Assembly (NCBI GenBank): GCA_964016885.1
Contig: OZ024740.1
Coordinates: 115,320,001-115,384,000, forward strand
Direction: 5' to 3'
From: Eledone cirrhosa
Taxonomy: Eukaryota
Length of the DNA: 64,000 nt
Below, piece by piece: positions 412 to 62,388 of the stretch. The position numbers and the translations under genes are program-made. How positions within the stretch are numbered: the first letter of the stretch is position 1; every line of letters begins with the position of its first letter. Below the pieces are notes generated by a model that was given only the letters and a program-made list of their open reading frames with translations, was not told the origin of the DNA and searched no databases.

Positions 412-610
412 AATAAAGGAGGTGTGGTAAGGAACCAGATGGACCATAAGGCACCAGAGTACTCAATACTTAGGGTAGTAGAGTGGGTAATAGGATAATG
501 TTTAACCCCGGCGGCAGAGATTAAGCCGTTTCGACAGCTATTTCTGAAATCTGAGTCCCGAAATAGCCGTCGAACTGGCTTGAGCTCTGCCGTCGGGGTT
601 AAACGTTTCA
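412..610 (-). mobile_element. HHR family A fold-back element in (TA)n (half-ribozyme copy)
   Basis: Shares the body aa(c/t)gaaggaggtgtggtaaggaacc...gagtgggtaatagg with copies at 31294, 39677, 61202 and 61455. Terminal hairpin ~498-606 contains GAA(C/A)..GGC-ttgagctct-GCC-GTC-ggggt. Flanked by (TA)n on both sides. Confidence 0.8.
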
Positions 611-1439
611 TATATATATATATATATATATATATATATATATATATATATATAAATACATGCATATATTTTTTATGAGTGAGTATGTAACTATCTAACA
701 TGATCCTTTATGTAAGTAATGTTGAGCGGTGATGATATATTTTAAAGCAACCAATATGCACCATGTGCACTAGAATTAGTGGTAGAAATAGTCTTTCTCT
801 TTTGCCGATCTAAATGACAGTAAATGGTGCTGTCAATATGGAACTATGGGTTTGACGGATGCAATAATGAGTACTCGATACTCAAGTAGAGATTAATAAC
901 ATATTTTTGATGCCTAAGCTATGTGTAATGTTACTCTGGATTTTCACTTATCTACTCACACGATAGTCATGCGAGTCCTGCCTCCAGTGTACAAATTTCA
1001 TCACTAAATCATAACAGAGATTATATATATGAGCTTAGGCGTATATGTGTATGAGTGTGTATGTGTGGGTGCGTGCGTGTGTGTGTGTATGTGTGTTTGT
1101 GTGTGTTTGTGTGTGTTTGTTTGTGTTACCTTTTAATAGCTTTCCAGAATTCAATGGAATTTGAATAACAAAATTGGCAGGTGTCACATATTGATGTATG
1201 TATGTATGAATGTAATCTCGTGTGCAAGTGTATGTGTAAGTCATTTTTTTATTTTATTTAATTGCAGTGATATACAAACATAGGGTTTGGCAGTAAAATG
1301 TGTTTACATATTTTTAAGCAGAACGACTTTGTGAAGATATAGAAAGTCATTAAAATAAGATTGCCTAATGGGAATCAAAACCATGACCCCTTTTATTTAT
1401 ACTACGGTATATTTACAGCTATACGCTAAGCTTATTTCC

Positions 1440-2600
1440 TCTCTCTCTCTCTCTCTATATATATATATATATATATATCGGTATCTCTCTATCTCTCTAT
1501 CTATCTAATCATGTCTCTCTCTCTCTCTATATATATATATATATATATATATATATATATATCGCTATCTCTCTATCTATCTATATCTATCTAATCATCT
1601 ATCTCTTTCTCTCATTCTCTATCTCTAACAATCTATCTATCTTCCTATCATATATATATGCGTGTGTGTGTATGTATGTGTGTGCGTGCGTGTGTATGTG
1701 TGTATGTGTGTGTATAAATATATATATCATCATCATCATCCTCATCCTCTTTTAACGTCCACTTTCCACGCTAGCATATATATATATATATATATATATA
1801 TATATATATATATATATACATATACATATATATATATATATATATATATACATATATATATATATATATATATATATATATATATATATACACATATATA
1901 TATATATATACATATATACATATTTATATATACATATACATATACATATACATATATATATATATATACATATACATATATATACATATACATATATATA
2001 CATATACATATATATATACATATGCATATACATATATATATATATACATATACATATACATATATATATATATATACATGTATATATATATATTTATACA
2101 CACATACACACATACACGCGCACACACACACAAACATATATATATATATATACACATATATAAATATATACATATATGTGTATATATGTGCATACATTTG
2201 TGTGTATATATTTAAATGTATATGTATATATATGAACATATATTTATCTGTGTTCTTATATGTGTGTATACATATATATGCGTATATATGAACATATGTA
2301 TTTACATCCCTATATATATATATATATATATATATATATATATATTTACAGATATAGATACGTATATATATTTACAGATATATATACGTATATATATTTA
2401 CAGATATATATACGTATATATATATACGTATATATATATATATATATACAGATATATATATATATATATATATATATATATATATATATATATATATATA
2501 TATATATATATATATATATATATATATATATATATATATATATATATGTGTGTGTGTATATATATATACGCACACACACACACTCATATATATATATATA
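1440..2600. repeat. Compound (CT)n/(TA)n/(TG)n/(CA)n microsatellite field
   Basis: Directly visible; the source of the YI/CV-repeat ORFs. Confidence 0.95.
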
Positions 2601-3880
2601 TCATTACTCTGGCGATATAATTCTTTTTATTCCTCTACAAGATAAGTTTGTAAACGTTCCAATCATGTTTTATTTCGGCAAATATGTATGTGTTTGAATT
2701 TCATTAACAAACTTGTATGCATAACATTCAAAACGTTTGCAAACTTTTTGTTTGGATTTATTAAAATATCAATTTGCCGATATTATTGCCATAAGCCGTA
2801 TAATATAGCTGTAATATTAACTCTCTAGATGCATCACCAAAAGCGACAATGTTTGAATTCTCATAGGGCTGTCGCTATTTAATAACTTTAATTTTCGCTT
2901 TGTATATCTGCTAAAAAAAGGAATTCAACATTGTTTAACGAAATGTAAATGCATATTTTTATATTCAATTTTTGCTTTGACCATCTATATGAAAACTAAT
3001 GTAAATAATCTGAAATCTTATATTTAGACAGAGGAACAGACGATAGATATGCGCACATGTGAATTGCCTTTAGTAAACAAAGAGTCGTTAAAACATAGAA
3101 TTCTTAGATAGAATTCTTTGCGGCATTCGTGCCGACTCACTGCACTTTTAGTTCAAATACTGCCGAGCTTAATACTGCCTTTCATTCTTTCGAAGTCGAT
3201 AAATAAACTGCAATTCCAATACTACGTTTGATTCTCTCTCTCTCTCTCTCTCTCTATCTATCTCTCTCTCTCTCTCTCTCTCTCTCTCTCTTTCTCTTGC
3301 TCTATATAGAAGAATCGACAGTGTTCAGACCTGGTCCGCCAGATTTAAATAACCAGGGCTCACCATATACGAAATAAATTTAGCTAACGCTGCATATGTA
3401 TGTGTGTTATGTTTGTATGTATGCATGTGTACGTATTTCTGTGCCACAGTAGTCGGTGGCGTGTCCATATGTATGTGTGTGTTCACAGAACACGATATCG
3501 TACCAACTACCTTTGGTATAAAAGACTTTAAAAAACACAAACGTTACCAACAAAGACCGGGTATCAAGAGATTTGCAATGGATATTGTTAATTGTGAAGA
3601 CATATAAAGAAGCAAAGAGATGTATTTACAAACCACCGTTGGCTCTGAAAATATCTGTAATCTTAATGAGGTGTACTATTTCCATGACTGTCACGGTAAA
3701 ACTATGAAATTGAAAATGTAAAATAAATTTAAAATACCACGTATGTTATTGAATATATATGTGTGCATACATATATTATTAGGAGGAGTAGCATTAGTAG
3801 TACAGAGAGGTGATCGGTGAAATGGCAGTAGCATTAGGCGCCTGTATACATGTATTATTATTATTATTAGTGTTAGTATT

Positions 3881-4190
3881 AGGGCGGTGAATTGGCAGTA
3901 TCGGTAGAGAGTCGGACGACATGCTTTCCATATAGTTACGTCCCTTTACGGTCTGAATTCAAATCCCGCCGAGGTTAACTTTGCCTTTCATCCTTACGAG
4001 GTCGATAAAATAAAGTACCAGTAATGTACTGGGTAATTGGTAGCCTTGTGCCAAGAGTAGAAACAATTATTAGTATTAGTAGCATTGTTAACTTTGCCTT
4101 TCATCCTTACGGAGTCGATAAAATAAAGTACCAGTAATACACTGGGGTAATTGCTGGCCTTGTGCCAAACGTAGAAACAATTATTATTAG
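3881..4190 (+). mobile_element. tRNA-derived SINE family 1 (full copy 3881-4072 plus tandem 3' half 4087-4190)
   Basis: A-box-like tggcagtatcgg, B-box-like ttcaaatccc, conserved body aactttgcctttcatccttacgrggtcgataaaataaagtaccag and (ATT)n tail; more than 10 copies in the window. Confidence 0.85.
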
Positions 4191-4339
4191 TATTGTTATT
4201 GTTATGTTGGTACTCGTTTGCGAGAGACATATTCACACCGGCCCCAAAAGGTTGGTTTTTGAGTTGTTTCAAAGTGGAATTTGTTGAATATTTTTTTCCC
4301 GAACTGTATATAAGATTCCACTTATTGGCATGTGTAAAG

Positions 4340-61201: not shown

Positions 61202-61402
61202 TAGGAAAAGAGTCAAGACCCCGACGGCTGAGCTCCGGCCGTTTCGACCACTAGATCTAAGCGTTCGGATCTATCTGTCGAAACGGCCGGAGCTCAGCCG
61301 TCGCGGTCCAGACTCTTTTCCTATTACCCACTCTACTACCCTAGGTATGGAGTACTCTGGTGCGTTATGGTCCACCTGGTTCGTTACCACACTTTCTTTA
61401 TT
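61202..61402 (+). mobile_element. HHR family A fold-back element
   Basis: GAAAC ggc cggagctca gcc GTC followed by the family body running into (TA)n; inverted arm 61202-61248. Confidence 0.82.
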
Positions 61403-61454
61403 ATATATATATATATATATATATATATATATATATATATATATATATATATAT

Positions 61455-61650
61455 AACGAAGGAGGTGTGGTAAGGAACCAGATGGACCATAACGCACCAG
61501 AGTACTCCATACCTAGGGAAGTAGAGTGGGTAATAGGAAAATGCTTAACCTCGACGGCAGAGCTCAAGCCGTTTCGACGGGTATTTCTGGTCCAGAAATA
61601 CCCGTCGAAACGGCTTGAGCTCTGCCGTCGGGTTTAAACATTTTCCTAAT
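61455..61650 (-). mobile_element. HHR family A fold-back element
   Basis: Near-perfect hairpin 61532-61650 centred on ctggtccag. Confidence 0.85.
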
Positions 61651-61717
61651 ATATATATATATATATATATATATATATAAATATAAATATAAATATGTAC
61701 ACGTACATACATAAATG

Positions 61718-62388
61718 TAACAGAAAAAATGAAACGAAATTTCATTTACCACTCTTAGTACGGCTGTTACTTAAATATACGTATGTACATGTACATACTT
61801 ATATGTATACAGACGTACAGTAGTATGTATATATATATATATACATACATGCACATATATATATGTACGTATGGATTCACCGAACATTTATTACAATGCT
61901 CGGTGTGTTTGTAAACAAACATCCCGTATTAAATGGGAAATGCAATTTCGTTTCATTTTTTCCGTTTATCGTTTTCGGTGCACCCGGCCGATTAACCCAC
62001 TCGATATGCAAATTGGGCTACTCAGCCGTTAATATGCATAAGGTAAGTATATACGTTCAACAATCTGGCAGGAAGGTATACGTTGCTGACCATAGCTAAT
62101 AAGCTTGAAACTAGTACAGCGTTCCTTTGTCAGTGTTGAACAAACGAGCAACGATGGTTGCTAGACACTACGGCTTAATATGGGATGTTTGTTTACAAAC
62201 ACACCGAGCATTATAATAAATGTTCGGTGAATTCATACGTACATATATATATGTGTGCATGTATGTATATATATATACATACTACTGTACGTCTGTATAC
62301 ATATATGTATGTACGTATACATACTTATATTTAAGTAACAGCCGTACTAAGAGTGGGAAATGAAATTTCGTTTAATTTTTTCCGTTTA
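61718..62388 (+). mobile_element. HHR family E element: ~421-bp unit with ~34-bp terminal redundancy (61934-62388) plus inverted arm (61718-61931)
   Basis: gggaaatg.aatttcgttt.attttttccgttt occurs at 61934 and 62355; matches 42133-42693. Confidence 0.88.
62080..62122 (+). ncRNA. Family E HHR with G8>C core mutation
   Basis: acgttg CTGACCA tagctaataagctt GAAA ctag TA cagcgt. Confidence 0.7.

Follow-up and report, generated by a model that had tools for sequence, protein, structure and literature searches.

Penelope-like elements (PLEs) have been described with pseudo-long terminal repeats (pLTRs) that stand inverted and head-to-head and meet in palindromes, optionally with a tail on one of the two, and with AT-rich targets (PMC3846280). 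The inverted-pLTR signature was later reported for all endonuclease-positive (EN+) PLEs, together with a (TA)n bias in Naiads, (TA)n insertions in the section on Hydra and a microsatellite bias in Neptune (PMC8557442); these and later statements about published systems refer to the available sections of the cited papers. Self-priming had already been proposed in 2013 for the inverted pLTRs (PMC3846280), and how the tandem or inverted ends and the one-sided tail are formed is called an open problem in both papers. Hammerhead pairs on opposite strands, 100-700 bp apart, were interpreted as probable truncated PLEs by Cervera and de la Pena (2014, PMC4209133), who also described a U3-A8 variant and a palindromic helix III in PLE hammerheads, and tandem retrozymes are treated as PLE-mobilised (PMC7229834, bioRxiv 10.64898/2026.07.22.740005). 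PMC13282606 does not mention ribozymes, and PMC12602865 contains nothing that bears on these structures. In vitro, PAc (Poseidon, from Anolis) cuts and extends both target strands, and its reverse transcription has two adjacent start sites inside the RNA, between which the tail lies (Frangieh et al. 2024, PMC11167929). Here, we analysed 64,000 nucleotides of Eledone cirrhosa DNA (assembly GCA_964016885.1, contig OZ024740.1, positions 115,320,001 to 115,384,000, forward strand; hereafter the window), in which we found eleven hammerhead-family insertions of 0.2-0.7 kb belonging to five families (A1-A5, B1-B2, C, D and E1-E2).

The architecture of these insertions is itself already known, and the copies are further PLE-type insertions, namely short 5'-truncated or non-autonomous pieces of pLTR type and not autonomous PLEs. 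We are highly confident that the feature is real and works like PLE insertion. With less assurance, we consider it probable that each copy arose by two target-primed reverse transcriptions (TPRTs), one per cut strand, at two fixed RNA sites, and that the products were joined head-to-head. Only tentatively do we propose the fuller reading, in which the copies would be an in-genome record of how PLE inverted pLTRs form, by two-ended priming at fixed family-specific RNA sites and joining of the ends through helix II or a micro-palindrome centred on 1 nt, not by self-priming.

Families, arms and strands were set by self-comparison and arm alignments, with the hammerhead motifs defining the strand, and insertion ends were set by eye from the alignments and the TA boundaries. 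The copies are, in window coordinates:

413-609, A1: tailed arm (minus strand, 413-544), 15-nt spacer in hammerhead helix II, short arm (plus strand, 560-609); no 5' core.
26349-26404, minus strand, B1 left arm: tail only, 3' end in (TA)n.
26405-26723, plus strand, B1 body: hammerhead-like motif with core CUGACGA at 26482; ends at internal aacaa/TA.
26762-27380, minus strand, D long arm: hammerhead core at 27111, long helix II, palindromic helix III, 133-nt tail into (TA)n.
27381-29472, D spacer of 2.1 kb: (TA)n, (TTATTTT)n, AT-rich segment with internal repeats, mixed microsatellite.
29473-29953, plus strand, D short arm: hammerhead core at 29749; its end is an internal tttt/AT that merges with (TA)n.
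30430-31145, C: short arm (minus strand, to 30727, core mutated), 24-nt spacer, long arm (plus strand, from 30752) with core CUGAUGA at 30798 and a 93-nt tail.
31295-31496, minus strand, A2 long arm: full hammerhead with U3/A8 core UUGAGAA (31475-31469), 78-nt tail.
31497-31622, minus strand, two tandem fragments of A2: both end at ggtgcg, ~38 nt before the 3' end.
31623-31747, plus strand, A2 short arm: full hammerhead, core at 31646; end tcct/A(TA)n.
31884-32448, B2: tailed arm (minus strand), 1-nt centre at 32204, short arm (plus strand); cores at 32138 (minus) and 32270 (plus); 57-nt tail.
39678-39869, A3: tailed arm (minus strand), 1-nt centre at 39807 in helix II, short arm (plus strand).
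42134-42694, minus strand, E1: partial tandem of a ~422-nt unit and a 139-nt upstream partial; core at 42438; 3' end in (TA)n.
61204-61401, A4: short arm (minus strand), 10-nt spacer, tailed arm (plus strand).
61456-61649, A5: tailed arm (minus strand), 1-nt centre at 61591, short arm (plus strand).
61697-62388, E2: ~30-nt templated piece, inverted arm (minus strand, ~61719-61932), direct partial tandem (plus strand), core CUGACCA at 62086.

A first-pass annotation, made from the letters of the window, had described a hammerhead-sense strand running through a tail into (TA)n, opposite a shorter inverted arm. Eight of the ten copies with an inverted part (A1-A5, B2, C and D) fit this layout, with the correction that the arms of D stand 2.1 kb apart, while B1 and E2 depart from it; E1 is without an inverted arm. 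All ten, across the five families, are oriented head-to-head, so arm orientation is not random relative to the hammerhead strand. The extra tail is one-sided, measuring 78 nt in A, 57 nt in B2, 93 nt in C and 133 nt in D, and no such tail is seen in E. In the arm alignments, identity is 50/61 in A1, 33/39 in A3, 51/57 in A4, 56/60 in A5, 247/248 plus a 16-nt indel in B2 and 295/305 in C, and within each A copy both arms carry common subfamily letters. A2, E1 and E2 are partial tandems. A5 and A4 lie tail-to-tail across (TA)27, and insertions are chained in the TA tracts at 26183-32506 and 61173-62692.

TPRT into (TA)n, as proposed in the first-pass annotation, is supported by the outer ends, 19 of 22 of which lie within 3 nt of a perfect (TA)n run of at least five units, a count that is partly circular because the ends were placed by eye. 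The three others are the 5' end of E1 and both ends of E2, which lie beside imperfect TA. Only 0.76% of background positions are near such a perfect run, and among the ends of SINE-like (short interspersed element) copies, used as control, 1 of 20 lies within 20 nt of one.

The same annotation had the short arm stop usually at an internal TA. Results showed that each family has a single, fixed internal end and not a variable TA. All five A short arms end at one alignment column, reading tcct/A(TA)n at 31747-8, 61203 and 61649, with A1 ending at 609 and A3 at ~39869, in the same column but degenerate and with a ~10-nt insertion. The other short arms end at aacaa/TA (B2, 32448), tttg/TA (C, 30430) and tttt/AT (D, 29953), and B1 and B2 have a common internal end. 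Considering that each A arm offers 8-12 TA and 3-5 TAT sites, the chance that five of five copies share one end is at most (1/3)^4, ~0.012 by hand arithmetic.

We also mapped reads and contigs on the A2 long arm (31295-31496) from four of 23 listed runs, namely X21 (raw reads of a different sample under the same species label, 19,225 of them mapped), X1 (contigs, which may come from the source sample), X5 (contigs under another organism label) and X6, the last two being chosen from the 16 of 20 listed run-search rows with a share below 0.2. In X21, 2,618 of the mapped reads enter (TA)n at exactly 31372, and this loose end was also found in 28 X1 contigs and 2 X5 contigs; it was not among the X6 matches listed. 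These reads prove the end itself and not its membership in an inverted arm. Another 20 X21 reads connect a tail end with an internal end on the opposite strand; we take them for adjacent insertions within a single TA tract, comparable to the chains of the window.

Recurrence of the short-arm end in X21 reads, from another sample, and in contigs under a second organism label also bears on whether the palindromes could be assembly or amplification chimeras. No mapped read spans a centre, and short-read assemblies are troubled by PLE tandem and inverted structures (PMC8557442), but the arms differ by ~0.4-18% plus indels and the ends are family-specific, and we find this explanation scarcely credible. 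A common short-arm end could on the other hand follow from copying of whole units, if the palindromes originated in DNA after insertion, through fold-back repair of breaks at fragile (TA)n or MITE-like (miniature inverted-repeat transposable element) spread. The (TA)n tracts are long and abundant (136 runs in the window), and one SINE-like copy bears a 33-nt inverted duplication (57903-57935/57980-58012), as such an origin would allow. It is nevertheless very unlikely in our view, as it has to face a head-to-head orientation relative to the hammerhead in ten of ten copies of five families, centres that vary among the A copies, SINE ends lying away from TA, and partial tandems of retrotransposition type in A2, E1 and E2.

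The first-pass annotation had suggested, as a general rule, that the cDNA snaps back to prime its own second strand and is joined to the target by microhomology. In its more complete form, a single TPRT would start from the tail end, the cDNA would fold on itself (through helix II in family A) and copy itself, and it would finally be joined to the opposite (TA)n end, where the endonuclease or RNA/DNA structure would set the site. A single fixed end per family counts against this scheme, and B1 does as well. The left arm of B1 is antisense tail only (40/49 columns match the B2 tail), and it halts within ~5 nt of the internal site where the sense body ends, without overlap, the tailless arm having ~320 nt that are missing from the tailed one. 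The end at 26726, previously taken as that of an inverted copy, is therefore no such thing, and the layout of B1 looks like twin priming as described for L1. A weak parallel to tail-only arms comes from 348 X21 reads that pass at 31374 from the A tail to AT-rich sequence outside the element, with an agreement of only 0.58.

E2 is the second copy of this kind. An inverted arm of family E had been noticed at 61.7 kb and it is indeed present in E2, but it ends at the 3' site of the direct arm and is without hammerhead. The two arms of E2 differ at 10 columns over ~130 nt, against 2 between its direct arm and the upstream unit of E1, and the inverted arm has in common with the other unit of E1 a 4-nt TA length variant and a G. 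Since these variants are common with another unit and are missing from its own direct arm, the inverted arm is unlikely to be a copy of the latter.

Centres of the palindromes were informative as well. Six are simple, three of them with a 1-nt spacer flanked by 165 (B2), 39 (A5) and 6 (A3) perfect pairs, and the others with spacers of 10 (A4), 15 (A1) and 24 nt (C). A DNA hairpin normally requires ~3 loop bases; spacers of 1 nt, too small for a hairpin loop, thus weigh against fold-back, while a joining of two like cDNA ends could tolerate a mismatch at the centre. The spacers of A1, A4 and C are loop-sized, as snap-back would predict. Further points on the side of snap-back are that four of the five A centres fall inside helix II, that the depth of X1 contigs is ~tenfold lower upstream of helix II (divergence may contribute), and that the cDNA 3' end of A2 is able to fold back through the native helix II, its end at 31464 pairing with 31418. 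However, that native fold-back would leave a 45-nt loop, and the A spacers observed are 15, 10, 1 and 1 nt. Both arms of A2 start at one base (within 1 nt), although other copies reach further upstream, and family A runs on upstream of the A2 start in 4 X1 contigs and 1 X5 contig. PLE reverse transcriptases (RTs) are not known to have RNase H; arm likeness, the A2 fold-back, centres in helix II and the X1 depth would therefore be just as compatible with two cDNAs copied from a single RNA. As a general rule, snap-back is not supported in view of the fixed end, the missing overlap in B1, the foreign variants in E2 and the three 1-nt centres; it could still apply to A1, A4, C and D, and we judge it an unlikely origin.

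Two primings are favoured because they explain the fixed end, B1, E2 and the 1-nt centres better than snap-back does, and the in vitro data on PLEs fit them, as both strands are cut and extended and two RT starts bound the tail (PMC11167929). In the sequence of events that we propose, the RT-endonuclease of a PLE would cut both strands of a (TA)n tract, and one cut 3' end would prime a cDNA at the distal RNA site of the family, while on the opposite strand a second cDNA would be primed at a proximal site, fixed and 57-133 nt upstream, whose TA or TAT in the RNA may pair with the target. Both cDNAs would extend toward the RNA 5' end. Stops close to the hammerhead would be usual, mainly within helix II in family A. 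They could then be joined head-to-head through end-joining or annealing of short self-complementary sequence, each one templating the second strand of the other. Halting of the distal cDNA at the second primer would give a non-overlapping twin-priming product such as B1, and a tandem RNA or two RNAs would give arms from different units, as in E2. The anatomy of the copies, their fixed sites, TA targeting and orientation are seen in the sequence, while the enzyme, the two primings and the joining belong to the proposal.

The ribozyme motifs were characterized by a descriptor scan, which returned six full type I motifs (two in A2, two in D, one each in E1 and E2); four of the six score at least 14, against none in 30 shuffles. 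Motifs of B1, B2 and C were missed by the descriptor and found only by core pattern and by eye. Under unconstrained folding, a three-way hammerhead was obtained only for A2 among five motifs folded. Hammerheads had been noted for family A as a whole, but only A2 has them complete, because in A1, A3, A4 and A5 the cut falls within helix II and the 5' core is missing. Marks of PLE type are the U3-A8 core in A2, the palindromic helix III in A, D and E (nearly so in C) and an extra base before helix II in B. Helix II is very long in A (~54 nt) and D (113-123 nt), and helix III is long in A and C. The start lies upstream of the core by ~21 nt in A2, 46 nt in C and 65 nt in B2. These hammerheads, predicted ribozymes on the evidence of sequence, lie within terminal-repeat-type pieces. 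U3-A8 covariation across the genome found no confirmation, as C occupies position 3 in ~17-20% of the depth with no matching G8 among the rows listed.

Several observations weigh against two-ended priming by a PLE. At 57-133 nt, the tails exceed the published length of 30-40 nt, and in vitro the RT start of PAc is not homologous to the cut DNA (PMC11167929), whereas here the proximal TA/TAT matches the target. B1 could be a former palindrome that lost one arm from the stem base, and one of the two variants common to E2 and E1 is a change in the length of a microsatellite and can arise repeatedly. In the remaining eight inverted copies, the arms are near-identical or carry common subfamily letters, as snap-back also predicts. 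No family-A fold-back joint and no read crossing a centre was found among the mapped reads and contigs of X1, X21 and X5, X21 reads being unable to cross the centres because they mostly stop at AATT sites. Rfam gave no match over the whole window at gathering score, and at E<=10 over 26300-32500 it gave 120 matches, none to a hammerhead family and mostly to microRNA models on palindromes and microsatellites. None of 12 open reading frames (ORFs) of the element regions, chosen from sets of 83 and 15, matches Pfam; no autonomous PLE was found in the window, and the only RT or endonuclease matches in Pfam (RVT_1, Exo_endo_phos) sit in LINE-type (long interspersed element) pieces outside the elements. 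The lack of a PLE RT/GIY-YIG ORF lowers the idea that the copies are autonomous PLEs, not that they were inserted by one.

On the same reads, one X6 contig switches strand between 31378 and 31417. A depth drop of X21 with molecule ends at 31425, 31436, 31440 and 31484 was considered as evidence of fold-back and discarded, as three of the four fall on AATT of the reference, which would be expected of a restriction-cut library.

Some details of the copies were also recorded. The fragments of A2 that end ~38 nt before the 3' tip, the classical PLE tail length, would point to a third preferred start site. In E2, ~30 nt between (TA)n and the inverted arm (61690-61722) repeat sequence from within the E unit, as if priming had begun in the interior of the unit and then jumped. 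The D spacer is AT-rich at 27688-28190, with internal repeats of 70-150 nt and preceded by (TTATTTT)16, possibly an unrelated insertion. A 14-nt remnant of the B1 tail end is present inside the (TA)n to the left of B1 (26220-26233). Distal ends in A, B1 and E finish with CGT(T) right before (TA)n (413-424, 31295-31306, 42134-42145 and 26349-26360). In the tail of family A, coding constraint was dismissed by eye given many first- and second-position changes, and 0 of 19 pairs of the consensus fold showed a compensatory change. Family-A motif scans returned 0 loci in metagenome contigs, viral contigs and prokaryote genomes, and no RNA run was among the matches listed in the run search.

Other repeats surround the insertions. 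Between D and C, a TA-flanked 440-bp segment (29975-30414) contains an imperfect palindrome (30107-30234/30238-30368, 98/118) and an inverted duplication of 40 nt that is nearly identical (30212-30251/30358-30397); a hammerhead core is missing from the segment, and near 30397 a GAAA that precedes a short self-complementary run resembles helix III of D. A hairpin family, F, occurs at 33597-33700, 34190-34248 and 37466-37590, where no hammerhead was found; two of its copies start at (TA)n from one internal position, and it has in common with the family-A tail a short AGTACT-containing motif, also present at 870. Two ORF remnants at 34841-36910 (214 and 261 aa, no Pfam match) give the impression, and nothing firmer, of a decayed DNA-transposon protein. 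The window has 37.7% GC and is animal-type DNA with many microsatellites and ~10 copies of a SINE-like repeat that may resemble octopus SINEs; the copy with the 33-nt inverted duplication spans 57903-58012. LINE-type RT and endonuclease remnants lie at ~8-23 kb, and some of these decayed copies (8235-23018; RVT_1, Exo_endo_phos) have (AGAT)n flanks, which suggests a second retroelement targeting microsatellites.

As a test set for the question of PLE mechanism, the families have a modest value. They would explain the chains of hairpin repeats nested in the (TA)n tracts of this genome, and, if our reading is true, five tiny co-existing families with their own tail lengths would permit a statistical test over thousands of copies. 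Snap-back and two-ended priming can be separated by counting copies, as both ends and the centre fit in one read length. In the literature covered, which includes few subscription papers, PLE inverted arms are nowhere assigned to two-ended priming from genomic copies, and figures or supplements of the cited papers may already hold similar non-autonomous copies.

Compared with known systems, the copies share with L1 twin or dual priming (PMC2837659) inverted fragments that come from primings on opposite target strands, as B1 illustrates, but L1 inversions are non-overlapping with variable internal sites, while here the arms mostly overlap and the internal site is fixed. With animal non-LTR retrozymes they have in common a non-coding nature, a type I hammerhead and a proposed PLE mobilisation. 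Family E resembles a retrozyme unit, with a 422-nt unit in partial tandem and one hammerhead per locus (retrozyme units are ~170-400 nt), whereas A-D are without tandem arrays having two hammerheads in direct repeat, and inverted arms are not described in the available sections on retrozymes (PMC7229834, bioRxiv 10.64898/2026.07.22.740005). PAc is alike in its AT-rich target and in the two internal RT start sites bounding the tail; inverted arms are left unexplained in the sections available of that work (PMC11167929). The minimal and variant PLE hammerheads (PMC4209133) are likewise of type I topology with a palindromic helix III, an additional base preceding helix II and U3-A8, and differ from the very long helix II of A and D, the long helix III of A and C and the four A copies that retain only the 3' half. 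Among EN+ PLEs (Penelope/Poseidon, Neptune, Hydra, Naiad), Naiad is a poor fit, since Naiads lack canonical hammerheads, according to the sections available, and the copies here carry hammerhead motifs. Unlike EN+ PLEs, these copies are without RT or GIY-YIG ORF and their tails exceed the usual length; like them, they combine a palindromic head-to-head copy, a one-armed tail and partial tandems with heavy 5' truncation, AT-rich or (TA)n targets and no readable target duplication. Occurrence in tiny non-coding elements, which the first-pass annotation had set against the resemblance to PLEs, has precedents in the published PLE pattern and truncated hammerhead pairs, and the likeness that it saw to the inverted pLTRs of PLEs is borne out by a pattern already in print (PMC3846280, PMC8557442, PMC4209133).

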